This document shows positions 17,205-33,775 of a stretch of 64,000 nucleotides of DNA, one piece after another. Below the pieces are notes generated by a model, which had not been told where the DNA came from, did not search any database, and worked only from the letters and a program-made list of their open reading frames with translations. The stretch comes from Candidatus Woesebacteria bacterium (GTDB taxonomy: Bacteria; Patescibacteriota; Microgenomatia; UBA8517), in NCBI GenBank assembly GCA_013426185.1, contig CP058602.1, forward strand, positions 628,549 through 692,548. Reading direction: 5' to 3'. Every line of letters starts with the position of its first letter. Position 1 is the stretch's first letter. Made by a program: the position numbers and the translations under genes.

Positions 17205-18299
17205 ATGAAACTTCAGGTTGTGCAAGAAGACTTTAAGAAAGCTGTTATTATTGCTTCTCGCTTTTCGAGCGCAAGGCCACAAATTCCAGTTTTGTCTAAT
17301 TTACTACTTTCAACAAGTAATAATAATTTAACTATCTCTGCTACCAATTTGGAAATATCTATTAATTTTAAAATAGGAGCAAAGGTGGAAGAAAAAGGTG
17401 ATATTACAGTTCCTGCAAAGTCTTTGGCTGAGATAGTGAGTAATTTAAATCCGGGTGTAATTAAATTAAAATCAGAAAAGGAACAACTAACTCTTGAAGC
17501 TGAAAATTTTAAATCAAAACTTTTGGGAATAAATGCTTCTGAATTTCCCAAAGTTCCAAAAGAGATGACAGGTAGTATGATCGAGATTCCGTTTGGTTCT
17601 TTAGTCCAATCTTTGTCTAAAGTTGTCTTTGCCTCCTCATATGATGAAACAAGGCCTGTTTTGACGGGAATACTTTTAATGCTTGATGAAGGTAAATTAA
17701 GTTTGGTGGCAACTGATGGTTACCGACTTTCTGTTTCTCAAATAGAAGGAAAATATCAAAGCGATGTTAAGAAATTAATAGTTCCAAAATTTATTTTTAA
17801 CGAGATTCCAAGAATTGCAACAGGCGAGAATATAATTTTTTCTTTTGATACTAAAAACAGTCTGGTTCTTTTTAAAACTAAAGAGGCGATTTTATCATCT
17901 CGTGTTATTGAAGGTGTGTATCCTGATTTTCAAAAAATAATCCCCAAAAGTTTTAAAACAAAAGTTTTGATTGATAAAGATGATTTTTTGCGCTTGATTA
18001 AGCTTTCGTCTGTCTTTGCTCGAGATTCTGGTAATGTAATTAAAATTTCAATTAAAAATAATTTGTTGGATGTTTTTGCTGAAAGCCAATATTCTGGTTC
18101 ACAAAAAAGCTCGGCTGAAGCAAAAGTTGAGGGTGATGATGTAGAAATTGCTTTCAATTACAAATTTTTAGAAGATTTCTTGAATTCAGTATCAGGCGAG
18201 ACTGTTTCTCTTGAGTTGAATGACTCAAGTTCTCCTGTTGTTTTTAAAGATACTTCTGATAAAAATTATCTTCACTTAATAATGCCGGTTAAAATTTAA
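17205..18299 (+). CDS. dnaN: DNA polymerase III beta sliding clamp
   Basis: N-terminus MKLQVVQEDFKKAVIIASRFS… and three-domain length typical of DnaN. Position after dnaA. Confidence 0.85.
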   Translation: MKLQVVQEDFKKAVIIASRFSSARPQIPVLSNLLLSTSNNNLTISATNLEISINFKIGAKVEEKGDITVPAKSLAEIVSNLNPGVIKLKSEKEQLTLEAENFKSKLLGINASEFPKVPKEMTGSMIEIPFGSLVQSLSKVVFASSYDETRPVLTGILLMLDEGKLSLVATDGYRLSVSQIEGKYQSDVKKLIVPKFIFNEIPRIATGENIIFSFDTKNSLVLFKTKEAILSSRVIEGVYPDFQKIIPKSFKTKVLIDKDDFLRLIKLSSVFARDSGNVIKISIKNNLLDVFAESQYSGSQKSSAEAKVEGDDVEIAFNYKFLEDFLNSVSGETVSLELNDSSSPVVFKDTSDKNYLHLIMPVKI

Positions 18300-19327
18300 A
18301 ATTGATTTTTTGAAGACGCGTCAAGGTAAAGTAGTGCTTTAACTTCTTTTGTATCTTTAGTCTTGGCCCATCCAGTTAATATAAAGACTGGTGGTAAAGT
18401 ATTGTTTCTTGAGTTATTTTCTAATAGGTATGCTAGTTCTATTTTTTCTACTCTGATTGATTGTATAAAGTCGTTTTCGATATCTGGTATGTTGATATTA
18501 CCTTCGTCTAGACTTATGAGAACCGACTGATTTATGTTTTCTAGAATTTCTTTGTAATCCTTAATTTTTACTTTACCGATGTTGCTAATACTTACGTCGT
18601 TTATTAGGTTAATTTCCGAGTTTAGAATGTTTCCATCCTTAAGCACTTGAACATAATATAAAAATTGTATGGGGGCGGGGTTAAGGATGATAATGTTGTT
18701 GATTTTTTGAGAAAAATTTACTTGGTATATTTGAAAATTATCTTCTTTTGCTTCGGTAAAGGTTTCTTTCTCTTTTTCTAGTTTTAACAAGGTTGTGCTT
18801 GTGTAATATATTTTGTCTTCAGGGATATTTATTTTTTCTTTTAAAAAGTTTTTGGCAATTGCAACGACATCTTCGTTTTTAAGTTGCTTGTTGGGAGCTG
18901 TTTTTATCTCTTCTTCAGGATTGTGATTAGGTGAATACTTAATTTTTCTGTTTTTAAGGTTTATTGTTAAATCATAATTATCACCGTTCCATATGAGTAT
19001 TTTTCCTTCCTCTATGTCGTCAAATTCTTTGGGGCTTTTCGTAAAACCAAGGCTGGAGGCAATTTTTTGGGCATCATCTTTTGAAAGAGGGTTTTGTTTT
19101 TTTACAAGGTATGGCACTTCTTTTGGAAAGGAAAAATCTTTTTCATTAATATTAAATGTTATAGTAAAGTTTGCTTTTTTGGAATCACTTGGATAACTGA
19201 TTTTAGGAGAAATATATTCTTTTTTTGTTTTTTCTTTGTTTTTTCCATTTAGTATAACAATAGCAAAAACAACAAGAGATATTACTAGTAATGCGAATAT
19301 AATAATTTTTGTTTTTTTTGTTTTCAT
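18296..19327 (-). CDS. Hypothetical exported/membrane-anchored protein (first gene of minus-strand T4SS-like cluster, or its last)
   Basis: N-terminal signal anchor KIIIFALLVISLVVFAIVIL. No recognisable motif. Tightly packed with 19337..22318. Confidence 0.5.
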   Translation of the reverse strand: MKTKKTKIIIFALLVISLVVFAIVILNGKNKEKTKKEYISPKISYPSDSKKANFTITFNINEKDFSFPKEVPYLVKKQNPLSKDDAQKIASSLGFTKSPKEFDDIEEGKILIWNGDNYDLTINLKNRKIKYSPNHNPEEEIKTAPNKQLKNEDVVAIAKNFLKEKINIPEDKIYYTSTTLLKLEKEKETFTEAKEDNFQIYQVNFSQKINNIIILNPAPIQFLYYVQVLKDGNILNSEINLINDVSISNIGKVKIKDYKEILENINQSVLISLDEGNINIPDIENDFIQSIRVEKIELAYLLENNSRNNTLPPVFILTGWAKTKDTKEVKALLYLDASSKNQF

Positions 19328-19336
19328 TTTTGGTCC

Positions 19337-22318
19337 TTAAGGTATATTACCACAGTTATTGCTGCACCCGTAAGGTACGTGCTTGGGTATATATGGAACG
19401 TCCATTTTTATATTTTGTCTAAATTCATAATGCAAATGGGGTCCTGTACCATCAGAACCGCTTAGACCTATTATTTGTCCCTTGATTACTTTTTGCCCTG
19501 TTGATACTGATGATGCTGATAGGTGAGCATATCTTGTGATAATTGTTTTGCCGTTACAGGTTGACTCAACGTCTATATAAAGAGGTCTATAGGCGTTACT
19601 AGTTCTTACAACAGTTGCTGTACCCGAGTGCGTGGATATTATAGAATGACCGGTGGTAGCGGCTATGTCTATTGCCTCAACCAGTAAGTGACTAAATATT
19701 CCGCGTGGCCCTTGTGTTATCCTAAGACTCGTCTCCCCGCCCTCTGGCATTATTGGCCAACCACTAGGACATTCTTCTGGAGGATTACCTATTTTGATGG
19801 ATGCAGATCCGGCGCTTGAGACGCTTTCTCCCTCGGCATTTGTAGCAGAAACAGTTATTGTATCTATAGTAAGCGTGTCCTCAAACTGAGGCGAGGTAAA
19901 AGTTTTTTTATAGGTGAAGGTGTAAGGTGATGCTGAGTCTATTGTGCCTATATTGCTACCATTTGGTATTGCTGGATTTGGGTTTGGACAGCTTGGTATG
20001 TTATTCTTTTTTGTTACGTTACAGGTTTCGCTTATTGATATATTTGTTAGAGAACCTTTTTTTGCCTTTATTGTTATTTCGTATGTTATCTCAAGAGGGA
20101 GTTGGTTGTTTTCAAAAGAAAGTTCACTGCTTTTTCCTTTTTCTGGATATTTTTCTGAATAAGCTAGTTTTGCAACTTCTATATATTCGTTTACAACAGC
20201 TCCTGGCCCTAAAGATGCCATTTTTGTTGAAGGAGGATAAACATAAGCTCCAGAATTGATAATAAAAAGAATTATGGCAACAAGAATTGGTATGCCAATA
20301 AAGACAATAAGCATAGGAATAACAAGAGAAGCTAAAACTATATTAGTCAAAGCAAAAAATAGACCTCCCAGAAAAGCACCTATTGATGCAGCTCTTGAGA
20401 CGCTTATTACACCTACTCCGGCAACAAGGTAAAGAGGAGCACCTGTTAAAGCAAATGCTCCTACAAGAATTCCTGCTAGAATGAAAGTAAGTTTGTCTTG
20501 ATTTTTCTTAAGCCAAACTTTTATGAGACTCGCTAGATCCTTAAGCGATAATAGAGCTGTTACTGCTGATATTACTTGTCCAATAGCGGGGATAACGTTT
20601 GCGGCAAGAGCGGCCCCTAGTTTGGTGGCAGCGGCCTTGGCGGCGATTTTGGTGGCGACCTTCGAGCCTAGTTTTGCAGTCATTCCGCTGATAGCTGTGT
20701 TTAATTTGGCAACAGCGGGAATTTTATTTATGAGCTTGTCGAAGGCAAAGTTGAGTATAGGAGAAGACAAAATGTTTGGTGACGAGAAACTGCCAAAATT
20801 TAAAGAAATTGCAATAGGCAGAGATTGTCCTTGTGTGGAAATACCTATGGTGGCAAGTTGTGTGTCTAGCCAGCCGGTGCTAACAGTTACTACTTGCCCT
20901 TGGGGGGGTGGCAATTTTTTACCGGTGATAAAGCTAAAAGCTCGTGTAGCAGAGGAAACTTTGCCCGCTACTTTTTTAATTTCAGTCTCAAGACGAGCTT
21001 TTTCTGGTTTACTTAGCTGATTGTATGTTTTTTCATCTAAAATAGCATTTTTAATTTGCTTTTCCAAAGTTTGAAAGGAGACAACTTGTTCTAAAAATTC
21101 AGTTAAATTTACATTTATTCCTCCTTCTGGTATTTTCCCTTCCGGCGCAGCTTCAAGTTTTCTTATTTGAGGAGGAATAAAAAAGGGCGACCAGTCTTGG
21201 CCGAATGCTTGATTAACAAAATTAGTGGCAATAGTAGAGTCTTTTTCTAGAGAGTATAGGGCTTCAAGAGATATTCTACTAATTTCCTCTCTTGCTTTTG
21301 CGTCAGGTATTATTTTTGCTAGTTCTTCATTTTTTGGATTAGCAAAGAAAGCTAGTGTTTCAAAAGGCGAAGAATCAATAGTTATTTTTGGGTCTTTAGG
21401 ATCAATGTTTAATAATTTTAGGGTGAAAGTTTTTGCGACGATTTCAGCAGATTCTGTTTCTAAAGGATTTTCAGGATTTAATTTTGATGTTTCTATAATC
21501 CTTTCTTTTAGTTGGTCGGCAAAATTTTGTGGATCTTGGTGAGCTAATTTAACTATTTCCAGTTGTTCTTTGCTTAGTTTTATTGTTGGTTCAGGGAGAG
21601 GAGAGTAGAGATTTGTTTCTAGTGATTTTGTCTCTGTTTTTTTAATTTCAACTTCCTCTCTTTTTAATATTGACCCTACTCTTTTTAGTAGAGTTTTGCT
21701 TGAATTGGTTTTTGCTATTGTTGTTTCTGGTGTTTTTTGGAAAGGTAATATGTTAGGATTAAGAGTTTCTTTCTGAACTGCTGTTGTTTCTTTAGACAGG
21801 ATGCTTTCAGTAGGTTTAATTGAATTTGGCTGTGATGTTGATTGTTCTTGGGTTTTTGCTTGAGGGATTTTGGGTGTAGTTGTTTCTAAAATGTTAGTAG
21901 TATCTGTATCTTCTTTTACAGAAGTTTTTTCCGAAGATTTTGGTTGTTCTTTTCCTTGTGCTTTTGTAGATGAATCTTTAGCCTGGGGTATTACTGGTAG
22001 TGCTTCTTTTTTTTGTCCTGAGGCTTTTTCGTACAATGTAACTAAGTCTTCTATATTGACAGGTACTGTTGAATAGACTTCTTCTCCGCGATCTAAGGCA
22101 ATTTTCCATCCCCTTACAATTTGTATCGCGTCTTGAATACTTTCGGCTTGGGTTGCTTCTAGAAGTTTTTGTTCAAAAGTTTCTTTGTTTTGTCCAGAAT
22201 AAAAAACTGCGGGAGCAACTTTTTGATCTTCTGGATAAAATTGGTCTGGAAAGAAAGCAACACATCCGTTGTACAAGAAATCAACAACTTCTTTGCTTAG
22301 TTCGTATTTTTCTGTCAT
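19337..22318 (-). CDS. Large multidomain protein with central TM block and C-terminal M23 (LytM-type) peptidoglycan endopeptidase domain
   Basis: C-terminal M23 motifs (…LVEAIDIAATTGHSIISTHSG… and GSDGTGPHLHYEF). 3-4 hydrophobic helices near residues 560-660. T/S/P/K-rich linker region. Confidence 0.7.
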   Translation of the reverse strand: MTEKYELSKEVVDFLYNGCVAFFPDQFYPEDQKVAPAVFYSGQNKETFEQKLLEATQAESIQDAIQIVRGWKIALDRGEEVYSTVPVNIEDLVTLYEKASGQKKEALPVIPQAKDSSTKAQGKEQPKSSEKTSVKEDTDTTNILETTTPKIPQAKTQEQSTSQPNSIKPTESILSKETTAVQKETLNPNILPFQKTPETTIAKTNSSKTLLKRVGSILKREEVEIKKTETKSLETNLYSPLPEPTIKLSKEQLEIVKLAHQDPQNFADQLKERIIETSKLNPENPLETESAEIVAKTFTLKLLNIDPKDPKITIDSSPFETLAFFANPKNEELAKIIPDAKAREEISRISLEALYSLEKDSTIATNFVNQAFGQDWSPFFIPPQIRKLEAAPEGKIPEGGINVNLTEFLEQVVSFQTLEKQIKNAILDEKTYNQLSKPEKARLETEIKKVAGKVSSATRAFSFITGKKLPPPQGQVVTVSTGWLDTQLATIGISTQGQSLPIAISLNFGSFSSPNILSSPILNFAFDKLINKIPAVAKLNTAISGMTAKLGSKVATKIAAKAAATKLGAALAANVIPAIGQVISAVTALLSLKDLASLIKVWLKKNQDKLTFILAGILVGAFALTGAPLYLVAGVGVISVSRAASIGAFLGGLFFALTNIVLASLVIPMLIVFIGIPILVAIILFIINSGAYVYPPSTKMASLGPGAVVNEYIEVAKLAYSEKYPEKGKSSELSFENNQLPLEITYEITIKAKKGSLTNISISETCNVTKKNNIPSCPNPNPAIPNGSNIGTIDSASPYTFTYKKTFTSPQFEDTLTIDTITVSATNAEGESVSSAGSASIKIGNPPEECPSGWPIMPEGGETSLRITQGPRGIFSHLLVEAIDIAATTGHSIISTHSGTATVVRTSNAYRPLYIDVESTCNGKTIITRYAHLSASSVSTGQKVIKGQIIGLSGSDGTGPHLHYEFRQNIKMDVPYIPKHVPYGCSNNCGNIP

Positions 22319-22320
22319 CT

Positions 22321-24300
22321 TTATTGAATAATATCAGTTTTAATAGATATTTTTGGTTGCTCTTGTTGTGTCTGATTAAGTGCCACGTCACTTTTATTTG
22401 ATAATTCTATTGGGTTACTGGTTATAAGTTGATGTTCCTCAGGTGAAGCAACTACTCTAATAGGAGCATGGTGCGGGCCGGCGAAGAAGATTCCCTCTCC
22501 AACATTGGCTGAAAGCAAGAGCTGCTTTTCTCCTTGTGAGAGATAAAAAACTTCACCCACGCGGTCTATAGCAGTTGGCGATTGTTTTAATAGGACTCTT
22601 AGGGCGCTGTTTGTTACAATGGCTTTACCAATATCTTGAGAAAGGAAATCTTCTACATCTTGAGTAATAGTTGTTAATCCTAGGAAGTATTTTCTTGCTC
22701 TTTTAACAACGCTCCATAAAAACTGGGCTGAATCTTCATATCTCATCATATGCCAGGCTTCGTCAACAATTAGAATTCTTCTTTTGAGGTTTCTTTGTAC
22801 ACGAGTCCAAATAAAATCAAGAATCATAAACATAGCAATAGGGCGAAGAGCCTCTTGCATATCTTTAACTGAAAAAACTGTAAAGGGATTATTGATGTCT
22901 ATATTTGTTTGTTTGTCGAAAATGCCCACAAAACTTCCTTTGACAAATCTTTCTATTCTTGAAGCAAGATCAAGCGCATCTTGAGTTTCCATACCAATTA
23001 ATGTTTTATAAAGATCTTCCATAAGGGGGGGTTCTTTTTTTTGGGTACTAGGATCTTGGGTTATACCCTTTGCGTGGTATGTTGCCACTATGGCGCGGTC
23101 AAGAAGGGCTTCTTTGATAGGGTCAAGCTTCCCCATAATAACTTTAAAGAATGAATGCAGAGTGAGAATTTTTAAGCCTAGTTGATTTTCTCCCTCTGTG
23201 TAAACTTGAGAGAGATCAAAAGGATTAATCTTTGAGGGAGAGTTGAAAGAAAAGGAAATATATTCTCCTCCTACCGCCTCGCAAAGAGGTTTGTATTCTG
23301 CTTCAGGATCAAGAATGATTACTTCGGTTCCAAGCATTAAACTTCTAACAGACTCTAGTTTTACAAAGTATGATTTTCCTGCTCCAGAAGTTGCAAAAAT
23401 TGTCATATTTGAATTTTCAAGAGAAAATCGGTCAAAGATAATAAATGAGCCGTTTTGTGAATTAATGCCATATAAAACACCTTCATCTGATGAAAGTTCA
23501 GCTGATGTTAAAGGAAAGGTAGTAGCAAGAGAGGTTGAATCCATGTTGCGGGTTATTGCTAGTTTGTTAAAGCCGAAGGGAACTGTGGTTAAAAAGCCAT
23601 TTTCCATATCAAGTGTTGCTTTTTTGGCGATAATCATCAACGAGCCAAGGGTTGACTCTACCTGTTTTGTAATATGATCTAATTCTTCTATGGTCGCAGC
23701 TGGTATGGTTATGTAAAATGCAAACTCAAAAAATCTTTCAGCACCTTTTACTAATTGTTCTTGGAGGGTAAGAGCGTCCTCAAGTTTTGCCTGGGTGTTG
23801 GGATCAATTACCTTACCTCTTTCGATATCGGTTGCAATTTCAGCTTCCATTTCAGTAATTTTTCTTCGCAAATCGTCAAGAACACTTTTCCCTTCGATAG
23901 GATAGATATAGAAGGAAATATCAAGAGAATTATTAAAGTTAATTATGGGTTCAAGCCAACCTGGGCTGACAAAGCGTGGATAACCTGAAACAAAGATAGT
24001 TCGAAAATAAGTGTCGTTGATTTTAATATAATCAAAGTCGGTTTCAATAATTTTGGGAGCGATAGCATCAATCAATTCGACCTTTTTGGTAAAAATATCA
24101 ATACTGGGATTACTTATTTCCGGCTTTTCCTCAGTTGATTTTACCGTTGAATCCAAATTTAAATCTTTTACACTATTTTCTTTATTCTCGACTGGTTGAA
24201 GATTGTTTGGTCCATAAGTAGGCTCTGGCGTTTGATAGAGAACTTCTTGATTATCTTTTTTTGTTTCTTCTTTGTTTTTTTTCTTTAAGATGTTAAACAT
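22321..24300 (-). CDS. VirB4/TrbE/CagE-family type IV secretion ATPase (ATPase body)
   Basis: Walker A FATSGAGKSYFVK. Walker B RILIVDEAWHMM. Conserved TQ motif (LTTITQD). Start taken as the internal MFNILKK methionine rather than the 24366 start that overlaps the upstream ORF. Confidence 0.75.
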   Translation of the reverse strand: MFNILKKKNKEETKKDNQEVLYQTPEPTYGPNNLQPVENKENSVKDLNLDSTVKSTEEKPEISNPSIDIFTKKVELIDAIAPKIIETDFDYIKINDTYFRTIFVSGYPRFVSPGWLEPIINFNNSLDISFYIYPIEGKSVLDDLRRKITEMEAEIATDIERGKVIDPNTQAKLEDALTLQEQLVKGAERFFEFAFYITIPAATIEELDHITKQVESTLGSLMIIAKKATLDMENGFLTTVPFGFNKLAITRNMDSTSLATTFPLTSAELSSDEGVLYGINSQNGSFIIFDRFSLENSNMTIFATSGAGKSYFVKLESVRSLMLGTEVIILDPEAEYKPLCEAVGGEYISFSFNSPSKINPFDLSQVYTEGENQLGLKILTLHSFFKVIMGKLDPIKEALLDRAIVATYHAKGITQDPSTQKKEPPLMEDLYKTLIGMETQDALDLASRIERFVKGSFVGIFDKQTNIDINNPFTVFSVKDMQEALRPIAMFMILDFIWTRVQRNLKRRILIVDEAWHMMRYEDSAQFLWSVVKRARKYFLGLTTITQDVEDFLSQDIGKAIVTNSALRVLLKQSPTAIDRVGEVFYLSQGEKQLLLSANVGEGIFFAGPHHAPIRVVASPEEHQLITSNPIELSNKSDVALNQTQQEQPKISIKTDIIQ

Positions 24301-25003
24301 TTTGATTTTCCTCCTCCTTTTTAGGAACCGGCGGCTTTGAATTAAAAATATTATAGTAGAGATCAATTAATTGGGCTGTAGTTAGCTGTCTTAATGTTAT
24401 ACCCAATCTCCTTGCCTGTCTTATTAAATGATCTCTTTTTGGGTAAAGTGAGATTTTGGCTTTTTTTAAAGCGTAAGATTTTGGGAATGGAAGTTTTTGC
24501 CCTCTTTTTATAATTGTCGAGGCCGATTTGGCTATTCCCATTTCAAGTGGGCTAAAAGGAACAACTATGTAAAAGCTTTTCCCCAATACATTTCTTTTTT
24601 TAATAATTTCATTTACAAAGCTTTTGTAACGACTCATTAAAGAAGCAAGTTTTGGATTTTTAATCTTTTGTTCTGCTGACTCAAGATATTCTATGTATTT
24701 TGAAATATCTTTAATTTGCGAGCGAACAATTATCTGAATTGGGAAAGAAAGCGAGTTTAGAAGCGCAGCATAAGCAAAAATGACTGCTTGTTGTTCTTTT
24801 TCTGAAAGCAAAGAAAAATTAAGAGAAGTTGACTCAAGCACTATTGCAGCTCCGCCATCTTTAAAAAGAACAATATTATCGACAATATCGGCAATGGGTA
24901 GAAAATCTTGAGTAGTAGAAATAATAGGAGTATCGGGCATACTAAGGTAGGGTATTTTTAGAGGTATTTTTTTAATTTTGTCTTTCATATTAGTTAATTG
25001 CAT
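24293..25003 (-). CDS. Protein resembling the N-terminal (CagE_TrbE_VirB-type) domain of VirB4; possible split VirB4
   Basis: Segment …FLPIADIVDNIVLFKDGGAAIVLESTSLNFSLLSEKEQQAVIFAYAALLNSL… resembles the VirB4 N-domain pattern. It lies immediately upstream of, and overlaps, the ATPase ORF in a different frame. Confidence 0.4.
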   Translation of the reverse strand: MQLTNMKDKIKKIPLKIPYLSMPDTPIISTTQDFLPIADIVDNIVLFKDGGAAIVLESTSLNFSLLSEKEQQAVIFAYAALLNSLSFPIQIIVRSQIKDISKYIEYLESAEQKIKNPKLASLMSRYKSFVNEIIKKRNVLGKSFYIVVPFSPLEMGIAKSASTIIKRGQKLPFPKSYALKKAKISLYPKRDHLIRQARRLGITLRQLTTAQLIDLYYNIFNSKPPVPKKEEENQNV

Positions 25004-26042
25004 TTGGTGTTGTTTGCGTTGATTTGGCTCTGATTAATATAGGTGGAATGATTTCTCCTTTTGCTTCAAAAGTGGCAGGTTCAAATTCATAACCTTCTTT
25101 CTCAGTAATAATATCGTATTGTCCGTTGGCAAGCGCGGTGACGATCATAAAGTGGCCGAGTTTATTTGACCTTATAGCACGAACAGGTCGGCCGGCAATA
25201 TCTCTTATTTCAAGTATTGCTCCTTCGATAATTTTTCCATTTTGATCTAACACTTGTCCTGTTATCGTGTTCGGAATGGTTGGTGGAAGTGGAGGTGCTG
25301 CTTCGGCTGAAAACTGAACTTGCTGTGATGCTTTTGGTGGCTCTTTTAGTATAGGAGTAACCTGTTGAAGGGATAAGGAAGGCTGTGCGTTTGGTTGTGT
25401 TTCAGCTATTTTTTCTTCGACAACGATTTTGGGTCTGAACGATTTTGGTTGGGTAGTGGGTGCAACTACTGTCTGAGGTCTAACGGGCGCTTGATTAATA
25501 ACTACTGGAGTGGGAGTAGGAGTAGCAACTTGAGCCTGGTTTGCGGATTGACCTTCTTTGATGACCACATTTCCTTGTCTGAAAAGGCTCAATATTCTTG
25601 AGAGAAAATTTTCCTCACCGCTTTCTAATTTATTAAGAGCTCCCTCGTTTTCAGTTGGCACTTTTTTAAGGTATTCTTCAACTTTTTGTTCAGCTTGTGT
25701 TTGTGGAGCTTGAGCTTGAGCCATCTCTTCGTCTTGAAAGAATTTGTAGCCAGCTTGGTTTTTTTGCCAAAGGTAAATGGTAGGGGAATATACAGAGCGA
25801 AAGAAGGCAATTATCCAACGGCTCAACGGCCTTTCTTCAAAAGGTAAAAATGCAAGAGCTGCTCCAAGCGAAACAGAAAACAAAATTAATGGCCATTTGA
25901 TAAAAGGATGAAGGCCAGTTGAATAGATTAAAAGACCCACTAAAGCTCCACCCCCAAGCTGGAAGAATTGTTTTAAAGTCATATCTCCTACCAATCTGAA
26001 CTGGTAGGAACTTATCTGTTGTGGTATCGGATGAGTCTCCAT
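24990..26042 (-). CDS. VirB3/PrgI-like two-TM membrane protein with Pro/Gln/Thr-rich linker and C-terminal beta-sandwich (carboxypeptidase-regulatory-like) domain
   Basis: Two N-terminal hydrophobic helices (GGGALVGLLIYSTGL…, WPLILFSVSLGAALAFL). Position upstream of VirB4. C-terminal GQVLDQNGKIIEGAILEIRD…GHFMIVTALANGQYDIITEKEGY pattern. Confidence 0.4.
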   Translation of the reverse strand: METHPIPQQISSYQFRLVGDMTLKQFFQLGGGALVGLLIYSTGLHPFIKWPLILFSVSLGAALAFLPFEERPLSRWIIAFFRSVYSPTIYLWQKNQAGYKFFQDEEMAQAQAPQTQAEQKVEEYLKKVPTENEGALNKLESGEENFLSRILSLFRQGNVVIKEGQSANQAQVATPTPTPVVINQAPVRPQTVVAPTTQPKSFRPKIVVEEKIAETQPNAQPSLSLQQVTPILKEPPKASQQVQFSAEAAPPLPPTIPNTITGQVLDQNGKIIEGAILEIRDIAGRPVRAIRSNKLGHFMIVTALANGQYDIITEKEGYEFEPATFEAKGEIIPPILIRAKSTQTTPNAIN

Positions 26043-26084
26043 TTTCAGGTAAAAGGCAAGAGGTAAAAGGTAAAAGTAAAGATT

Positions 26085-26459
26085 TTATATCTTTTCTCTT
26101 GCCCTTTTTCTTGATCCATATAATAATTTTTTGTTCTCAACAATTAGATTTGATACCTCGTTAAAATCATCTTTTCCTATATATTTTAATTCCAGAGATA
26201 TATCAATTAAGACTTCAAGCTCAGTCAAAGAGCCTATTGAGATCGTAAGGAACCTTGAATATTCTTTAGGTTTTTCTTTTATATAACCTTCTACAATATT
26301 GGCAACGACTGATATTGCTGCCCTTCTTATTTGAGGAACAAGGCAGTAAAATTCTTCTTTGGGATAGGAATTTGTGAGGCGGTATATCATTAGAACTAAT
26401 TGTTTTGCTTTTTGATAGGAAATTAATTTCTGATAACTTGTCTTTTGTTGTTTTTCCAT
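26085..26459 (-). CDS. Four-helix-bundle protein (23S rRNA intervening-sequence protein family)
   Basis: Signature YQKAKQLVLMIYRLTNSYPKEEFYCLVPQIRRAAISVVANIVEGY. Flanked on both sides by inverted gtaaaag/ttaaaag-type repeats. Confidence 0.75.
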   Translation of the reverse strand: MEKQQKTSYQKLISYQKAKQLVLMIYRLTNSYPKEEFYCLVPQIRRAAISVVANIVEGYIKEKPKEYSRFLTISIGSLTELEVLIDISLELKYIGKDDFNEVSNLIVENKKLLYGSRKRAREKI

Positions 26460-26544
26460 AGTATTCCTTTTAACTTTTAACTTTTACCTACATATAACTT
26501 TACCCCGTGAAGAGTCTTGTGCAACCCCTCAAAGGTTTTCACAG

Positions 26545-28449
26545 GTGGATAAAAATGATATAATAATCCAAATGACAGAAGGAGAACAACAAATACCAAG
26601 GGCTGAATCTGCACCTAAAGGGTTGGTTCCCGAAAAGTACCTTGCTTTTAAAGGGTCACTGTTTTTCGGGACTGAGGATGAATTGAATAGTTTTAAAGAG
26701 GGATTAAAAGATTTATCAGATCCGGAGCGAGAGATTGGGGAAAGAGTTTTGAAGTTGCATAGGATAATGGCAGGTTTATCCACATCTTCGCTACAAGGTG
26801 AATTAGAAGAGATTTATAAGACAGCTAAAGATAACAATTTACCTGATGATAATGAGTTGTTTGTTTTTGCCGCTTCGGTTCTTTCAACCGAGATAGGACA
26901 GAGAATGACATCTTCCGGTCAGGGTCGTGTTGTAGGTGGAGAGGAAAGAGATCCTGCGTTGAATGATTTGCTAGAAATAAATAGACAACTTCTTAAAGCA
27001 ACGACAGGGCAGTTGGAATTACAAAAACAACAAATGGAGTTATTGAGGCGCTCTGGTTTTTCTGGCTTTGTTTCTGCAATGCAAGCAAGAGCGGGTATAA
27101 ATGTCCAGCAGTTTGATACAGAACCTCCGGTTTGGTATGACAGACTTTCTGATGAGTGGAAAAGAGTTGTTAGAACAAATCTGGGCATTTTGATGGGGGC
27201 TTATCTAAAGTTCAGATCGCCTGGCCAGGGGGCGGAATTGATTATAAAGTCTGAAGATATTCGTATCGAGAGGGAGGCCTTGGCTTTTATGTGGGAGAAT
27301 CTACCTGGTTTTAGGATGACCATTGCTACTATTGTTTCTGAATTGTTTGAGGATAGCGAGGGTAAGATGGTGCTCACCAAAGATGGTAAAGACAAATTAG
27401 CAGACACTCCTGCTTATATATCTTCTTTATTGGCGAGATTAAAGAAATATTTTTCAGAAAATCCCGATAGTCTTATGTTGTATTCACAAACTCTTGGGCC
27501 TGAAGATATAAACCCTGATGTTGCCGCCCGATTTGCTGTTTCTGCTGCCTTTAATTTGCTTTATTTGGGTGGTGCTTTTGAATCTGGTGATTTGGGTAAA
27601 GGCCTAAAGGATTCTTATTCTTTTAATCCTTCTGTGAGGACTTTTTGTTTACCTCGAGATCAGGCAAGGTCAAAATACATTTCAGGTGAAGAAGATATAA
27701 TTGGAACAGATGAGGCATGGGGGGGTAAATTGGGAGAGTGGTTTGCCGAGAGAATTAGGCACAAACCCCAATTTAAGCAAGACTTTTTAAACAACAAGGG
27801 AATAACTAGGCTTATGCCTCAAAGATTAATGTATAGTTTGTTTGATTTAACTTACTTTAAAAATGGAGAAACCCTTTCTAAAGCATTATTGTCAATTTTG
27901 TCTCCTGAAAATAGAAGAGAGATTTCAGGTATGGTTGACTATACAGATCCCAACCTGGTTAATTTTAGAGACCTCAAGTATCCAGAGCTTTGGGGCGGAT
28001 ATTCTGATTTAATGGATTCTGCTTTTAAGGTCTATCAGGCAATAATTGGTAAGGCGGACAAGGAATTTGACCGGCAGGCTCTGGCCAACTCTCTTTCAAA
28101 GTTGAGAAAAGATCCTACTTTGAAGGGTATCTATACGGGAGAAAATGGTGAGTGGGTGGTATTAGCCGCTTTGACCTCTCTTCTTGGCGGTCCTAATTTG
28201 TATAGTTCTGAGATACTTTTAAGATTGCCGGATGAAAGTTATGATTATTCGGTTTGGGAATGGCTTGATGATGACAGAGTTTTAGCCGCCTTGCCGAGTG
28301 GGGCAAGAGAAAGGATTTTTAGAGCTTTAAACGCGAAAAATCTAGATTCTACTGTTGATGCATTTTCATCTTTATTTAGCGGCTCCTTTTTGGGTAGAAG
28401 AGAATCTTTAAGAAGGAGAATAAGAAAGGAACAGAAAAGGTGGCGTTAG
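26545..28449 (+). CDS. Hypothetical 634-aa protein on the strand opposite to, and embedded within, the T4SS-like cluster
   Basis: Long ORF with no TM and no recognised motif. C-terminus Arg-rich (RRRIRKEQKRWR). Confidence 0.5.
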   Translation: MDKNDIIIQMTEGEQQIPRAESAPKGLVPEKYLAFKGSLFFGTEDELNSFKEGLKDLSDPEREIGERVLKLHRIMAGLSTSSLQGELEEIYKTAKDNNLPDDNELFVFAASVLSTEIGQRMTSSGQGRVVGGEERDPALNDLLEINRQLLKATTGQLELQKQQMELLRRSGFSGFVSAMQARAGINVQQFDTEPPVWYDRLSDEWKRVVRTNLGILMGAYLKFRSPGQGAELIIKSEDIRIEREALAFMWENLPGFRMTIATIVSELFEDSEGKMVLTKDGKDKLADTPAYISSLLARLKKYFSENPDSLMLYSQTLGPEDINPDVAARFAVSAAFNLLYLGGAFESGDLGKGLKDSYSFNPSVRTFCLPRDQARSKYISGEEDIIGTDEAWGGKLGEWFAERIRHKPQFKQDFLNNKGITRLMPQRLMYSLFDLTYFKNGETLSKALLSILSPENRREISGMVDYTDPNLVNFRDLKYPELWGGYSDLMDSAFKVYQAIIGKADKEFDRQALANSLSKLRKDPTLKGIYTGENGEWVVLAALTSLLGGPNLYSSEILLRLPDESYDYSVWEWLDDDRVLAALPSGARERIFRALNAKNLDSTVDAFSSLFSGSFLGRRESLRRRIRKEQKRWR

Positions 28450-28468: not shown

Positions 28469-30070
28469 TTATTTTACTTGGCCCATAGCGCGGAGCATGT
28501 CAAAGAATTTTTTACCTCTAGCTGTTCCTTCTGGAATCGCTTTTCCTTGTGGAATAGACTTGTATCTAATTTCGCTTTCTGTGGCTGTATATTGAAGTCC
28601 CATTTTACCAACTCCTACGGCCGGCGCCACAGCCTCGCCGATTGCAGTTCCATAAGCAAATGGCTTGCCTTCTATCATACTCTTTATTATATCAGCTACT
28701 TTGGGAATCATCATATAGATCGCGAAACTTGCAAGCATCCAGAGGAACCTCCCACTGTTTGTGCCCCAAGTTAAAGGCGGGTCCCAGTTTGTAGTTGATT
28801 CTAGAGCCCTGGGTGATATTTGAAAAGGTGCCGCGCGTGCCAGAAAATCACCAACGGTGGAGCCGCCTGTTGCCTGAACAGCAAAAAAGAAGGCGAGAAA
28901 GAACATTACTCCTACGGTTGGATAAACAGCAAGATTGGCAATAAAATTTTTAGCCCACTGCCCAAATCCTCCTCCTATCGGACTAACTATTCCAATCAAG
29001 ATTTGTAAAGGAGCAGCAACAATTGAAAGGATTATTGATACATAGGTTTTTATCATCAGCCACAGAATTTTGAAAGAATTAAAGATAGTTGCTATTAGAA
29101 CTACAAAGAAAAAGAGGATGAGAAGGAAACCGCCAAAGAATCCTGCCGAGAAGATTGTGGCTATAGTGCCAAGCAAAAACATTAACACATAGTGCCAAGA
29201 AAGAACTAAAACATTTCTATCACTTGTTAGATCCTTAAATAGATCTATGGCCGAATAGCCTGAATCTACTAGCCCAGAAGCCTTTATGATTGAAGAGGTT
29301 ATCCCTATGACAACATACATCAAATCTATTAAGAAACCTGCAATTGCGTAGGAAAAGGTTATTAAGACAAGACCGATCACTACTTTAGGAAGAGCTGACT
29401 GAACGGTTATAACGGCTTGGGGAGATATTTTAACCCTGAACATTATCATCAAAGCAAAAGCAATGATAATTATAATCAGAAGGCCGTAAGATATATTTCT
29501 TGTTGCTTGCCACAGCCTTTGTACAGCTGCTCCGCCTGAAGTATAGCCAAAGCCTTGAGCTTTAGCTTCAGGCAAGCTGGTTAGTTTTGAAATTTTTCTT
29601 AAGAGATATCCGGTCCCTGAGAGTTCGTTATTGTAAAGGAAGGAATAGAGAGAAAAGTTGTGGTCCCTTGCTAGTTGGGTTCCTGTTTCGTTATCGGTTA
29701 TTAGCCTTATGGGAAAAGAGAAGAAGTTGTACATTCTTTCTATCACTTCCTTTAGGACTTGGACAGCCCCTGTAATACAACTTCCTAGGTCAGCGGAGAA
29801 GACGCAGATCCAGGGTTCTGGTCGCCCTAAGGTAAGAGCGGTCATCATGTGAGCTGGTATGGAATAAAATATCCAATTGACTTGTGCTGCTGTATATCTT
29901 TCTCCGAAAATCTCGGTTGGGTTTGAGACATCAAACGTTTTTACGTACCATTCGGGGTAGTCTTGGTGAAACCATAAATTATCAGCAGCGAAAGCTTGAG
30001 AGGATGAAGCGGGAAGAATGAAAATGGCAATTAAAATCGAGATGATTATTTTTTTAATAGTTTTTTTCAT
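28469..30070 (-). CDS. Signal-peptide-bearing polytopic membrane protein, VirB6/TrbL-like by architecture
   Basis: Signal sequence IIISILIAIFILPASSSQAFA, then an ~170-aa N-terminal domain, then at least 6 TM helices. Architecture and T4SS context only. Confidence 0.4.
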   Translation of the reverse strand: MKKTIKKIIISILIAIFILPASSSQAFAADNLWFHQDYPEWYVKTFDVSNPTEIFGERYTAAQVNWIFYSIPAHMMTALTLGRPEPWICVFSADLGSCITGAVQVLKEVIERMYNFFSFPIRLITDNETGTQLARDHNFSLYSFLYNNELSGTGYLLRKISKLTSLPEAKAQGFGYTSGGAAVQRLWQATRNISYGLLIIIIIAFALMIMFRVKISPQAVITVQSALPKVVIGLVLITFSYAIAGFLIDLMYVVIGITSSIIKASGLVDSGYSAIDLFKDLTSDRNVLVLSWHYVLMFLLGTIATIFSAGFFGGFLLILFFFVVLIATIFNSFKILWLMIKTYVSIILSIVAAPLQILIGIVSPIGGGFGQWAKNFIANLAVYPTVGVMFFLAFFFAVQATGGSTVGDFLARAAPFQISPRALESTTNWDPPLTWGTNSGRFLWMLASFAIYMMIPKVADIIKSMIEGKPFAYGTAIGEAVAPAVGVGKMGLQYTATESEIRYKSIPQGKAIPEGTARGKKFFDMLRAMGQVK

Positions 30071-30136: not shown

Positions 30137-30652
30137 TCAGGGATTTTTATTTTCGCAAAAACTTAGACCATAATTTTTTCCTGCATATTCTGGATTAGCA
30201 TAACTTGGTGTTGTGATATTTACTTTAAGGTAGCAAGCTTCTTGTTGACTAATTTTCAATTTATCAAGCAATGCTTTTTCGGCTTCAGTTCTAATTTCAT
30301 CAAACGGAGAACTGAGTATAGATATAAGAAATGAATTATCAACAGGAATATACATTATTTGGTAATCCTTTTTATCGATAAATTTAGCAAAACCATCCTT
30401 TTTAATTTCAGTTGCTTCTCTATAAAAATTGTTGACCTCTATCCCTGAAATTTTTATTTTTGGCGACTCTTGATCAATTTTTGTTTCCAAATCTTTTGGC
30501 AAAAAGGGGGAAGTTGTGGGTTGTATGGTTTTTTGGGGCTCGGTAATTTCGCTTTTGGGATAGGGAATAAAAATTCCTATTAAAGCAAAAACAGCTACAG
30601 CGAGAAAAGAAAAGATCAGAATTTTGTTTTTGTCAATTTTTTTTATGGGCAT
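30137..30652 (-). CDS. Small bitopic membrane protein (N-terminal TM anchor plus ~140-aa external domain), candidate VirB8-like component
   Basis: Anchor ILIFSFLAVAVFALIGIFIPY. Size and topology fit VirB8-type proteins. No sequence motif confirmed. Confidence 0.35.
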   Translation of the reverse strand: MPIKKIDKNKILIFSFLAVAVFALIGIFIPYPKSEITEPQKTIQPTTSPFLPKDLETKIDQESPKIKISGIEVNNFYREATEIKKDGFAKFIDKKDYQIMYIPVDNSFLISILSSPFDEIRTEAEKALLDKLKISQQEACYLKVNITTPSYANPEYAGKNYGLSFCENKNP

Positions 30653-32985
30653 TTTGATATATCAAGGCCACAAGCTTTAGCTGCGTTTATCCATGGGCAC
30701 CAAGGGCTGTATCCTCTACTTTTCAAGTCTTTTGTCAAAGCAACAGCCTTTTGTATATTATTGGTAGGATCAAAAAACATATTAGCGCATTCAATTACTC
30801 TGTCCTTGTCCTTAATTGTACACATTGGTCGATTTTTATCAAAGGGTGTTCCACCGTCACAGTGTGCCAAAAGGTTTATTTGAAAAAGTCCGATACTGTA
30901 GTCAAAACTACTACCGCTTAAACATCCACAATTGATGGCGTCTGGGTTGCCACCACTTTCAGTGTTGCAAATACAAGACGCGGCTGCAGCATCACCTGGG
31001 TCAAAAAACTGGCTAAGATATGATTGACTACAGTATCCTCCTCCAGGAACAGCCCCACTTGGAGAGCCGCTGTTTCCTGCAGGTGAAGAAGTACAAAGAC
31101 CGGTTGGGTCTGTTCCGCCACCACTTTGTAATTCTTGCCCGACAGAGGCAATGGATTTTTCGCTACAGGCTGATGGTATCCCTCCTATTTCAATACCTCC
31201 TATGAAAGGAATCCAGCCTGGGAGTCTTATTCCTTTTGTGCAAGCGACAATTTGGTCGTGACGATCTTGTCTTGCTCTTGGCGTTACTTCATTGGCTCTG
31301 CCTGTTAGCTGAGTTGCTGGCCTTTGCGAGTTAAGAGTGTTGATTTTGATTTTGTTTTTCCACTGAATTTCTTGAGGCAAGAGCTTGTTTAGTGGACCTG
31401 AAAACGTTGTTATTCTTTTTAGATCTGCTTCCTCTTTGTGGCTTAAAGGGTCGTCTTCGGCTCTATAGAGCGTGCCGTTTAAGTACCAGCTTAGGTATTC
31501 ATTTGCGCGGTCGGCTTCGGGAATCTTCTGGCCTGTGGTTAGACCAGCTGGTGCTCCCCCAAACTCTTTAGGCCTTAGAGCAGTCTGGATGCCCAGTAGG
31601 AAATAGTCATATATGCCTCCGAGGTGGGGAAAATAAAGCTGGGGGTTTTGGGTAGAAAGGTTGGCTCCGTCGCCATTAATATTATATTCTACATTTGAGG
31701 ACGCGGGGATGTCTTTTATTTTTTCATAAGGAGAGTTGGGGCTTGTTTTTGGCATTATTCTCCTGAAAATGGACGAGTTGCCAGCAGTTGTTTTGCTCCA
31801 AATTTCATCTACAAGAGGGGTGAAAGTTTCAACCTGAGCTGATAGTTCTGCTGTATTTGTGCATTCTCCTCTGAGGGAACAAAAACCGGAAGAGCAGTCC
31901 CATACTGCTGGACAATCAAAAGAAGCTGTATATGTTATTTTGGCAGCAGGTGCGCCTGTTGACTTTTGAGCTCTTTTGTCTATTTGTTCCCCAAACAATT
32001 GATCTCCGGGGTTATAGCGCGATTCTAGAATAGTGCACCCTGATTGCTGCCTTACAGCATTAATATCGCCAGCTTTGATGCTTTGAGCTTGTCTGTTGTC
32101 TAGATTTTCTTTTGGGGCGAATGTGGATTGTAACAGTGTTGTTAGTTCTACCCCTTCCTCAAGGTGGGGAAAATAAAGGACGCCCTCTCTTGTGGTAGTG
32201 TTTTTGGTCCTCGGGTCGTCTGATTTTTGTTTCCATTCTGTTCTTAAGTTTTTTATCTCAAAATTGGTTGAGGGCATGGAGCTAAAGTCAGACAATCTTA
32301 TTTTGCCGATTCTATCTTCGGTGGAGGAATAGGGTATGTATGGAAAAAGCGCGGCCCAGAAATCTGGCTGGAGGGGGTTGTTAAAGCAGAACAGAATCTT
32401 GAAACCAATTATTGGTATAGTTACCTCTGCGCAGGTTTTACCTCTCCATTCCTGGTATGCTGCATAATAGTCTTTCAGATTTGAATATCGAGAGGGGTCT
32501 GGTGGCAAACGGTCTTTCCATTCTGCTAGTCTTTTCTCGTTTTCTCCAAGAGACGATGTTTTTCCCCGAGGAACAAGTTCCGTGTTGCCTGCTATTGGCA
32601 GTTCGGAATTAAAAGCATTGACCGAAATCTCGACCTCCTTTGGAACGTTGCAATGGCAGGTAGTGTTTGAATTCCCTGAAGCGGCTTGAGGGGGGTCGCA
32701 TCGGCAATGGGAACTGTTAACATTGGTTGTAAAGGTTTGCCTTATGACGAAATCTTTTCCACAAAGCAGAGATTGCTCTTCATCCTTGATGGGTACTTGG
32801 CAGGGGCTTGCTTGATAAGGCCTTAAAGAGTGCCACTCTGGTTTTTTGGTTTGATCGCAGGGAACGTAGGGTTCGGGAATTGGGGCAGGGTTGGTAGCGT
32901 AGACTTTTTGGGTAGAAGATAGAAAAGCTAATAGGAAAAAGAGAGAAAAAACAAAACTAAGTCTTTTTTTGAATAAACCTGGCAT
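30643..32985 (-). CDS. Secreted cysteine-rich 780-aa protein with C-terminal GH23/SLT-type lytic transglycosylase domain (VirB1-like function)
   Basis: Signal peptide LSFVFSLFFLLAFLSSTQKVYA. Many Cys. C-terminal CICNTESGGNPDAIN…SIGLFQIN matches the SLT catalytic ES…GLMQI signature. Confidence 0.6.
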   Translation of the reverse strand: MPGLFKKRLSFVFSLFFLLAFLSSTQKVYATNPAPIPEPYVPCDQTKKPEWHSLRPYQASPCQVPIKDEEQSLLCGKDFVIRQTFTTNVNSSHCRCDPPQAASGNSNTTCHCNVPKEVEISVNAFNSELPIAGNTELVPRGKTSSLGENEKRLAEWKDRLPPDPSRYSNLKDYYAAYQEWRGKTCAEVTIPIIGFKILFCFNNPLQPDFWAALFPYIPYSSTEDRIGKIRLSDFSSMPSTNFEIKNLRTEWKQKSDDPRTKNTTTREGVLYFPHLEEGVELTTLLQSTFAPKENLDNRQAQSIKAGDINAVRQQSGCTILESRYNPGDQLFGEQIDKRAQKSTGAPAAKITYTASFDCPAVWDCSSGFCSLRGECTNTAELSAQVETFTPLVDEIWSKTTAGNSSIFRRIMPKTSPNSPYEKIKDIPASSNVEYNINGDGANLSTQNPQLYFPHLGGIYDYFLLGIQTALRPKEFGGAPAGLTTGQKIPEADRANEYLSWYLNGTLYRAEDDPLSHKEEADLKRITTFSGPLNKLLPQEIQWKNKIKINTLNSQRPATQLTGRANEVTPRARQDRHDQIVACTKGIRLPGWIPFIGGIEIGGIPSACSEKSIASVGQELQSGGGTDPTGLCTSSPAGNSGSPSGAVPGGGYCSQSYLSQFFDPGDAAAASCICNTESGGNPDAINCGCLSGSSFDYSIGLFQINLLAHCDGGTPFDKNRPMCTIKDKDRVIECANMFFDPTNNIQKAVALTKDLKSRGYSPWCPWINAAKACGLDISKCP

Positions 32986-33027: not shown

Positions 33028-33330
33028 TTATTCCTGATAGATGATTTTGAATTGGGTAACGTCTACTCCTGTGAATTGATAAATTAACTTAAGTATTAAA
33101 AAAGACATTGCAAGAAGTACGATGCCAAAGATGGCGTAAGTTATGGTTTTTTTTGCTGCTTCTGCTTGCTGAGGGTTGCCTCCTGCAGTTATATAGTTAA
33201 ATCCGCCAACAATAAGCATTATAAAGAGGACTATTCCTGCAAATTCAAGCGCTACTTTTACTATGTTTCCAAAATAAGTTTCAATGTCTGATAGCTTTGC
33301 TGGTGGTTCTGCTGTTGTTGTTGATTCCAT
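33028..33330 (-). CDS. Pilin-like small membrane protein, paralogue 1 of 8 (VirB2/TrbC-like two-helix architecture)
   Basis: Shared motif ITAGGNPQQAEAAKKTITYAIFGIVLL between two hydrophobic helices. Confidence 0.55.
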   Translation of the reverse strand: MESTTTAEPPAKLSDIETYFGNIVKVALEFAGIVLFIMLIVGGFNYITAGGNPQQAEAAKKTITYAIFGIVLLAMSFLILKLIYQFTGVDVTQFKIIYQE

Positions 33331-33377
33331 CAGAGACGATTATAGCAAAAGCAGTAAAAAAAAAGAAGCTTGAGACT

Positions 33378-33773: not shown

Positions 33774-33775
33774 GA

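Follow-up and report, generated by a model that had tools for sequence, protein, structure and literature searches.

PrgK of Enterococcus faecalis pCF10, the wall hydrolase of a Gram-positive type IV secretion system (T4SS), is among the closest described counterparts of the protein reported here. It combines a cytoplasmic N-terminal domain, a transmembrane (TM) helix and extracellular LytM, SLT and CHAP domains, and binds the product of the next gene (PMC11323569). Another is SEML1_0007 of Southlakia epibionticum ML1, a protein of 1113 amino acids (aa) whose gene follows that of VirB4 and is essential by transposon sequencing (Tn-seq). SEML1_0007 has a C-terminal Hedgehog/DD-peptidase domain, and its structural neighbours include a 'Peptidase M23 domain-containing protein' (Wang et al. 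2023, supplementary tables). A T4SS in Patescibacteria, a peptidase gene behind virB4 and an M23/LytM domain in the hydrolase of a Gram-positive T4SS (PrgK) are already known. The locus described here lies in a 64,000-nucleotide (nt) stretch of the genome of a Candidatus Woesebacteria bacterium (contig CP058602.1, positions 628,549 to 692,548), which we call the window and to which all coordinates without a locus label refer. An ATG-initiated open reading frame (ORF) on its reverse strand (19337..22318) encodes a 993-aa protein that ends in an M23 peptidase domain. The C-terminal part of this protein and the partner gene downstream are exchanged as one cassette between near-identical genomes. 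We consider it rather probable that the protein is a T4SS-coupled, membrane-anchored peptidoglycan endopeptidase with a cognate inhibitor or chaperone.

A large part of bacterial diversity belongs to Patescibacteria, which appear to live on other cells. Their T4SSs are MPF_FATA-like and relaxase-free, with TrsD, PrgI and arrays of VirB2-like pilins (Quinonero-Coronel et al. 2025, PMC12102498). They often stand beside dnaA and dnaN in Microgenomatia and Paceibacteria. VirB1 homologues rarely adjoin virB4, and in S. epibionticum essential peptidase and lysozyme homologues are encoded directly behind virB4 (PMC12102498). The Patescibacteria T4SS is the first that was shown to be essential for the growth of its owner (PMC10633639, PMC12857230). 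In a literature search of incomplete coverage we found no description of a family with a polytopic anchor, an invariant junction and interchangeable head domains, nor of a one-to-one co-varying PepSY/YycI-like partner or of cassette exchange between near-identical genomes.

Domain structure and family distribution

The ATG start of the 993-aa protein is supported by the conservation of M1 and Y5 among 12 homologues. Pfam places Peptidase_M23 (PF01551) at aa 882-969, well above the cut-off (E=6.2e-18; 65.2 bits, gathering score 28.7). The same stretch is matched by ShyA, MepM, TagE and lysostaphin in NCBIfam and the PDB, and a profile built from 21 C-terminal head domains of the family matches ShyA and TagE at E~1e-18. 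M23 was the sole domain found with Pfam and NCBIfam; SLT, CHAP and NlpC-P60 domains were absent from the protein. It has no N-terminal signal peptide, and Kyte-Doolittle hydropathy revealed a single hydrophobic block at aa ~567-691. A preliminary description of this gene had proposed a long protein with TM helices in mid-chain, a low-complexity linker and a C-terminal M23 domain, and all of these features are borne out. The linker (aa ~96-235) is rich in S, T, P, Q, N and K, varies in length and indels among homologues, and has a predicted local distance difference test (pLDDT) score below 50 over aa 92-224 in the AlphaFold2 model. Modelling of the N-terminal domain, which the same description had advised, gave an alpha/beta structure and no fold assignment; the N-terminal part had neither a Pfam nor a structural match. 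No tblastn match to the N-terminal part and TM block together (aa 1-702) was found among 72,556 plasmids.

One genome per species was scanned for the family, which yielded 54 loci; nearly all of them bear the label Woesebacteria, Microgenomates or Patescibacteria. The order PrgI-TrsD-VirB4-M23-gene family-one small partner gene-dnaN(-)-dnaA(-) was found in 51 of the 54. Of the three remaining loci, two had a gene after VirB4 that was too diverged for BLASTP, and in one the contig ended there. In the window, only 2 nt separate the virB4 stop codon from the ATG of the M23 gene, which suggests coupled translation, and the ATG of the partner gene follows 9 nt after the M23-gene stop codon.

When a profile of the N-terminal part and TM block was run in an exhaustive search (E<=1e-3), the family amounted to 294 clusters at 50% identity. 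Word-indexed protein searches returned 12 relatives of the full protein, one of them named Patescibacteria, and again just 12-13 close relatives when the query was an alignment of 47 sequences that covered the same N-terminal part and TM block. The TM block was the region commonly matched among the 294 clusters and is the sole part common to the whole family. The N-terminal region ranges from ~130 to ~1700 residues and its N-terminal domain is missing in some members; a region of such variable length is therefore an accessory part. Across 52 sequences, invariance was confined to F685-I-I-N-S-G-A-Y692 and P695, where the last hydrophobic helix ends. The resulting junction motif, FIINSGAY(V)xPP, was present without exception in three sequence sets (52/52, 47/47 and 45/45).

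Head types and cassette exchange

In most members the motif is followed by a ~150-aa beta-rich domain with two Cys, ending in IGNPPxxCP, and then by the head domain, as seen in an alignment of the C-terminal parts. Pfam recognised M23 in 29 of 52 members, CHAP in three of 52 and Amidase_2 in two of 52 (E=1e-10). The C-terminal alignment separated the heads further. The type found in the window, M23a, is marked by [ST]H-x6-EAID ... YAHL ... GPHLHYEF ... PYIPK..GC..C..IP. A second type, M23b, carries GHGS..YW ... YYGYAxDV ... LTH ... HLHxEF ... YFC and reaches just E=0.02 with Pfam M23. An HExxH type has no Pfam match, the CHAP heads form two subtypes, and three loci have further M23-like heads. 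All recognisable heads belong to peptidoglycan hydrolase families.

Head types were interleaved on a neighbour-joining tree of VirB4 C-terminal parts. Pairs of loci with 94-99.7% identical VirB4 C-terminal parts bear different heads (for example window/L055, L012/L022, L020/L038 and L014/L023). The comparison of the window with L055 locates the exchange at the nucleotide level. The two are 97.4% identical over window positions 26500..22025, a stretch that takes in the PrgI gene, virB4 and the 5′ end of the M23 gene, and 87.8% identical over 21655..20226. From ~20226, just past the codons for FIINSGAYVYPP, to 18299 there is no DNA similarity at all, and identity returns to 97.4% at the dnaN stop codon, which is exactly where the exchanged cassette ends on its 3′ side. 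The proteins P0003 and P0009 share 86.5% identity up to FIINSGAYVYPPST and 30% beyond it. Between species, nucleotide similarity ends at the 5′ end of the M23 gene or a little within it and resumes exactly at the end of dnaN; it sometimes returns in between as an island of ~300 nt that ends at the motif. The partner gene (-) and dnaN (+) converge at 18296-18299, where their 3′ ends overlap by 4 nt and leave no intergenic space.

The downstream partner gene

The gene between the M23-gene family and dnaN always encodes a bitopic protein with one N-terminal TM helix, Cys-free with one exception. Wherever both could be read, the BLAST cluster of the partner and the type of the head matched one to one. 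M23a heads (20) were paired with a family of 322-356 aa to which the window's partner, p343, belongs; M23b heads (12; ten by clustering, plus L046 and L055) with partners of ~150-170 aa; HExxH heads (8) with a family of ~190 aa; Amidase_2 heads (3) with a family of ~380 aa; and CHAP heads with families of ~205-215 aa. In profile-profile comparison, the three large partner families aligned at the TM helix only, and their ectodomains were mutually unrelated. Partners of M23b and CHAP heads bear a Big_5 immunoglobulin (Ig)-like domain.

PepSY propeptides inhibit zinc metalloproteases. The modelled fold of p343 is PepSY/YycI/YpeB-like, with an N-terminal TM anchor and tandem alpha+beta domains of PepSY type. 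YpeB is a bitopic partner that keeps the cortex-lytic enzyme SleB inactive (bioRxiv 10.64898/2026.06.01.729290). An autolysin with a named inhibitor, SagA/PhiA, has also been reported for the Brucella T4SS, where PhiA failed to inhibit SagA in vitro (PMC8334348). By analogy with such pairs, p343 most likely restrains or stabilises its head.

Membrane topology

The distribution of Cys about the TM block and the conserved Lys/Arg flanking its cytoplasmic side lead us to infer that the C-terminal M23 domain is extracellular. Six of the seven Cys of the window protein lie beyond the TM block, and among the 50 loci whose C-terminal part is complete there are 0-1 Cys before the block or motif and 3-12 after it. 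The membrane block consists of a weakly hydrophobic helix (567-592), a K/R-rich loop (593-609) and then ~80 uncharged hydrophobic residues (612-691), which would suffice for roughly three TM helices. In the family-wide profile, Lys/Arg are conserved at a four-residue period over aa 549-561 and are dense over aa 594-609, and none is conserved over aa 612-699. Helix 567-592 is therefore flanked by K/R-rich segments on both sides. If both segments are cytoplasmic, this helix would be peripheral or re-entrant, and three TM crossings would bring the C-terminal 300 residues outside. By hydropathy, charge and Cys distribution the protein would fit a PrgK-like layout of cytoplasmic N-part, anchor and outside hydrolase, although its anchor is polytopic and its TM block is modelled at pLDDT <50. 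The beta-rich spacer between anchor and head may be termed Ig-like from its sequence pattern.

Catalytic-type residues of the M23 head

The preliminary description had read the active site as an HxxxD-like AIDIAA...GH and a GPHLHYE. The HLH histidines (H961 and H963) are indeed conserved. The first part was mistaken: the residue four before D884 is V880, so that the canonical HxxxD is lacking, and G890-H891 ('GH') is not conserved in the family. Conserved instead is H877, which makes the motif H-x6-D; across the family, 6-10 residues separate this His from the Asp. In a profile alignment, this His fell on the upstream RxHP histidine of TagE, not on the canonical zinc-His position. H932 (YAHL), H961 and H963 were invariant in the 21 M23a heads, which are 35-63% identical to the head of the window, and D884 was present in every M23a head whose fragment spans that column. 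A Glu, Gln or Asn is conserved three residues before the Asp. The M23 domain of the window thus has four of five catalytic-type residues at standard positions, with the first His displaced. The conservation of D884, H932, H961 and H963, together with the membership of all alternative heads in catalytic-type wall hydrolase families, argues for catalysis, and the head would on this evidence be catalytically competent.

Proposed function and alternatives

We suggest that the ~560 N-terminal residues would lie in the cytoplasm as two folded domains joined by the disordered linker, and may dock the VirB4/TrsD ATPase. The hydrophobic block, in the simplest case three TM helices and one helix that is peripheral or re-entrant, would end at the invariant FIINSGAYVxPP. 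Beyond it, on the outer side of the membrane, would lie a spacer domain with disulfide bonds and a zinc M23 endopeptidase. There the head would cut peptide cross-links of peptidoglycan, letting the T4SS channel and the VirB2-like pilus pass the cell wall, be it that of the own cell, of the host or of both. The membrane-anchored, PepSY/YycI-like p343 would bind its particular head and hold it inactive or stable until it is needed, as in the YpeB/SleB pair. Recombination would replace the extracellular module and the partner as a cassette at the conserved junction, and related strains would therefore bear different wall-cutting chemistries.

Several points weigh against this picture. Being absent from some members, the N-terminal domain cannot be essential to the core function, and neither the N-terminal part nor the TM block appears to resemble any characterised T4SS protein in sequence or fold. 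AlphaFold2 models the TM block poorly (pLDDT <50), and if all four hydrophobic segments were membrane-spanning, the N- and C-parts would share one side. With its first zinc-ligand His displaced, the head could be a non-catalytic domain of LytM type, as in PrgK, EnvC and SpoIIQ. Rapid replacement of heads would be unusual in a pure assembly enzyme, and the case for binding between head and p343 is made by co-variation and analogy.

A tentative alternative is a polymorphic effector-immunity module in which the head attacks the wall of a host or competitor at the T4SS contact site and the downstream bitopic protein is an immunity protein that protects the own wall. A conserved N-part and anchor, an invariant junction, unrelated C-terminal heads and a co-varying downstream gene are the standard signature of polymorphic toxins. 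The partner would be placed on the outer face of the producer's membrane, and its fold class includes inhibitors of proteases and hydrolases (PepSY propeptides, YpeB, cystatin-like folds). Patescibacteria live on host cells and their T4SSs are relaxase-free (PMC12102498, PMC10633639). Antibacterial T4SSs with peptidoglycan-hydrolase effectors and immunity proteins occur in Xanthomonas and Stenotrophomonas (PMC6759196). The head may even be freed by cleavage between A and Y of the invariant NSGAY, which obeys the -3/-1 small-residue rule of signal peptidase I and, with S-G-A-Y standing behind a hydrophobic helix, fits a site of signal-peptidase type. Such release is, however, pure conjecture, and the 993-aa protein is integral in the membrane rather than a soluble substrate. 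Each locus holds one module and no orphan array, and elsewhere in the 64-kb window there are neither orphan partner or immunity genes nor spare head cassettes. A fixed operon member with apparent translational coupling to virB4 is more typical of a machine part, and the positional counterpart in S. epibionticum is essential, like the machine genes. A polymorphic 'warhead' that is fused to a core T4SS membrane subunit, is aimed at the wall of hosts or rivals and is swapped at FIINSGAY together with its membrane-anchored immunity protein thus seems to us possible but doubtful. If it were true, the head type would help decide which hosts are exploited or which kin are tolerated.

It is unlikely that the protein is instead a structural subunit of the translocon, 'extended VirB6'-like or TcpH/ConG-like, whose M23 domain, like the degenerate LytM of PrgK, serves wall binding or regulation without catalysis. 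That the TM block is the only universally conserved part, that the canonical HxxxD histidine is missing and that VirB6 homologues are reportedly scarce in Microgenomatia (PMC12102498) would all suit such a subunit, as would a match of TraG_N to one of 45 TM blocks (E=1.7e-4). However, this match is isolated: Pfam TrbL, VirB6 and PrgH matched none of the 45, and the TM-block profile had no match in the PDB, hence no detectable sequence similarity to any solved chain. The block has 3-4 hydrophobic helices (aa 567-691) against five or more in VirB6 proteins, and the conserved D884, H932, H961 and H963 as well as the catalytic type of all alternative heads speak against a non-catalytic module. The likelier VirB6 analogue is another protein conserved in the cluster, which is polytopic, has 533 aa (28469..30070), a signal peptide and ~six hydrophobic segments. 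Membership in the VirB6/channel group, suggested by the channel proteins with which the preliminary description had compared the gene, was rejected on the Pfam and PDB results. The phage tape-measure proteins named in the same comparison fared no better. Such proteins do contain similar M23 domains, but the 272 matching phage records cover only aa ~845-991, the M23 region; no phage genes were found nearby, and the neighbours are chromosomal T4SS and housekeeping genes. A remnant of a phage tape-measure protein or tail lysin is thus highly improbable, and so is a housekeeping endopeptidase of the MepM/ShyA/LytM kind, acting in growth or division and merely placed beside T4SS genes. ShyA, MepM and TagE are the best M23 matches; nevertheless, the family was found solely in the slot behind virB4, with a gap of 2 nt in the window and strict synteny in 51/54 loci, and a housekeeping enzyme would not alternate between M23, CHAP, amidase and HExxH heads among genomes with 94-99.7% identical VirB4.

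For a membrane-anchored endopeptidase with a cognate partner, the consequences depend on which wall is its target. Action on host walls would tie T4SS function to the host range of uncultured ultra-small bacteria; action on the own wall would make the locus an unusually clear case of joint evolution of an autolysin and its inhibitor. In a machine that is otherwise conserved and essential, this most variable part is a candidate determinant of host interaction or self-protection. The head-partner pairs are testable, the junction motif is defined and could be used for engineering, and a marker for strain typing is gained.

Genomic setting and further observations

The GC content of the region is ~35%. 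One flank holds rnpA, yidD, yidC, a Jag-like gene, dnaA and dnaN, with dnaG, rpoD and a class I aminoacyl-tRNA synthetase gene farther off. The rnpA, yidC, dnaA, dnaN, dnaG and rpoD neighbours identify the chromosomal origin region. Upstream on the same strand are genes for a VirB4-like ATPase, a TrsD-like protein, a PrgI-domain protein, the 533-aa polytopic protein, proteins of 171 and 780 aa and eight small two-helix proteins (Table 1). This T4SS cluster is of the Gram-positive type, MPF_FATA-like and typical of Patescibacteria. The proposed link to Gram-positive T4SSs is upheld by the position 2 nt behind virB4, the slot of PrgK, and by PrgI, TrsD, the pilin array and an SLT_3-like protein nearby.

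Table 1. Coordinates of the M23 gene, its parts and adjoining genes in the window.
Feature	Coordinates	Strand	Evidence or remark
T4SS-associated membrane-anchored M23 protein, whole ORF, 993 aa	19337..22318	-	ORF, Pfam, homologues, synteny
N-terminal domain, aa 1-95, alpha/beta, predicted cytoplasmic, without fold assignment	22034..22318	-	
Disordered low-complexity linker, aa 96-235	21614..22033	-	Indels in homologues; pLDDT <50
Conserved, mainly helical middle domain, aa 236-465, predicted cytoplasmic	20924..21613	-	Homologue alignment; AlphaFold2 model
Poorly modelled segment, aa 466-566, with Lys-periodic amphipathic helices at its end (K549, K553, K557, K561)	20621..20923	-	Family K/R profile; modelled helices
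Hydrophobic membrane block, aa 567-691	20246..20620	-	Hydropathy, family K/R profile
Invariant junction motif F685-I-I-N-S-G-A-Y-V-Y-P-P696, end of last TM helix, boundary of exchanged cassette	20231..20266	-	
Beta-rich spacer domain, aa 700-851, with C765 and C777, ending IGNPPEEC850P	19766..20221	-	Family C-terminal alignment
M23 metallopeptidase head, type M23a, aa 852-970 (H877, E881, D884, H932, H961, H963)	19409..19765	-	
C-terminal tail with Cys (PYIPK...GC985..C989..IP) and stop codon	19337..19408	-	Conserved among M23a heads
Exchanged cassette (ectodomain, head, partner)	18299..20226	-	No DNA similarity to otherwise 88-97% identical contig L055
Cognate partner p343, 343 aa, with N-terminal TM anchor and predicted extracellular tandem PepSY/YycI/YpeB-like domains	18296..19327	-	Starts 9 nt after M23 gene
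VirB4-like ATPase, directly upstream	22321..24300	-	Likely true start MFNILKK, giving 659 aa, as called in L055
TrsD-like protein, resembling VirB4 N-terminal domain	24293..25003	-	
PrgI (VirB3-like) domain and CarboxypepD_reg-like domain	24990..26042	-	

The array at 33028-36375 (-) encodes the eight small proteins with two hydrophobic helices each. The first matches T4SS_pilin (PF18895, E=4e-11), and the last, of 179 aa, has in addition a signal peptide and eight Cys. This array fits the VirB2-like pilin arrays reported for Patescibacteria. The 780-aa secreted protein (30643-32985, -) has 28 Cys and a C-terminal 'lysozyme-like' SLT_3 match. It corresponds to the glycan-cutting SLT protein of the preliminary description; an SLT_3 match was thus found, although at 26.4 bits it is borderline, just under the Pfam cut-off of 27. 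Adjoining the pilin array is a gene for a 559-aa SpoIID-domain protein (36439-38118, +; E=1.6e-19), the third wall-remodelling gene of the locus.

A 124-aa '23S rRNA-intervening sequence protein' (PF05635, E=7e-31) is encoded inside the T4SS cluster at 26085-26459 (-), just upstream of the PrgI gene; homologues stand beside the PrgI gene in L010 (two copies), L011, L017, L023, L032, L049, L053 and L055. On the opposite strand in the middle of the cluster lies a 634-aa ORF (26545-28449, +) with no Pfam match and no TM helix. It occupies the same place in L001 (53% identity) and L054, and L055 has a 566-aa gene at that position. Some 25 kb from the T4SS cluster, genes for an OLD-family ATPase/TOPRIM nuclease (583 aa) and a large serine recombinase (458 aa) follow each other at 47126-50334 (+) and may form a small mobile or defence island.

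VirB4 itself varied among the loci. Five had long VirB4 ORFs of 1171-1349 aa (L009:6461-9976, L011:5208-9257, L024:5577-9152, L039:1730-5326 and L043:4515-8261). These carry an insertion of ~530-600 aa that falls next to where the match to the P-loop domain begins (aa ~332 in the VirB4 of the window), with flanks 66-81% identical to that VirB4; the insertion may be an intein. In three further loci (L005:2628-5210, L014:6935-9544 and L023:6727-9471) TrsD and VirB4 were fused in one ORF of 860-914 aa, which supports TrsD as a split-off VirB4 N-terminal domain. A fusion of the N-terminal domain of the M23 protein to VirB4 in loci with long VirB4 was considered and rejected, the extra length being either the insertion or a TrsD-VirB4 fusion. 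Many public metagenome-assembled genomes titled 'uncultured Gammaproteobacteria bacterium' (one Alphaproteobacteria), among them L002, L004, L007, L010, L014 and L017, carry the Woesebacteria-type dnaA-dnaN-T4SS arrangement. The genes they contain and the 57-85% identity of their VirB4 to that of Woesebacteria genomes point to mistaken titles.

Comparison with known systems

Like PrgK (and TraG of pIP501; VirB1-like), the 993-aa protein is encoded directly behind a VirB4 homologue. It also shares with PrgK, as a predicted layout, the N-terminal cytoplasmic domain, the membrane anchor and the extracellular wall hydrolase including M23/LytM. In both cases the next gene encodes a bitopic protein, which for PrgK is PrgL and binds it; the partner here is PepSY/YycI-like, whereas that of PrgK is VirB8-like. 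In PrgK, a single TM helix is combined with SLT (muramidase) and CHAP domains and a degenerate LytM. The protein described here differs in its 3-4-helix block, its invariant junction and in having M23 only, and its M23 domain, unlike that LytM, keeps four of the five catalytic-type residues at standard positions. Outside M23 there is no detectable sequence similarity between the two, and cassette-style polymorphism has not been reported for PrgK.

SEML1_0007 is a counterpart by position. Both are long proteins whose genes come next after that of VirB4, within chromosomal T4SS clusters that adjoin dnaN and dnaA, and both end in a peptidoglycan peptidase, that of SEML1_0007 belonging to the LAS group. 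In the S. epibionticum cluster, small exported Ig-like and BT0923-like proteins are encoded behind SEML1_0007. The head there is M15/DD-peptidase-like instead of M23, and a separate lysozyme and CHAP protein, SEML1_0006, follows.

A wall hydrolase encoded beside a dedicated partner that holds it inactive or stable is also found in SleB-YpeB of Bacillus, with its PepSY-domain partner, and in SagA-PhiA of Brucella. SleB, however, is a soluble lytic transglycosylase and not a membrane-anchored M23 protein, and neither pair is known as an exchanged cassette. Exchange is the feature shared with CdiA-CT/CdiI, Rhs, LXG and the antibacterial T4SS effectors X-Tfe/X-Tfi, which likewise have a conserved N-part, a conserved junction, a variable C-terminal enzyme and a co-varying next gene. 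As in these polymorphic toxins, in which peptidoglycan hydrolase payloads are common, replacement proceeds through recombination between near-identical flanks. The carrier here differs in being an integral membrane subunit of a T4SS operon instead of a secreted filament or soluble substrate, and no orphan modules were seen. Within family M23, the head shares the motif-1 Asp, the YAHL histidine and the HLH motif with LytM, lysostaphin, ShyA/MepM and TagE. It departs from them in that its first His stands 6-10, not 3, residues before the Asp, and in its extra conserved Cys and its PYIPK...GC..C..IP tail.

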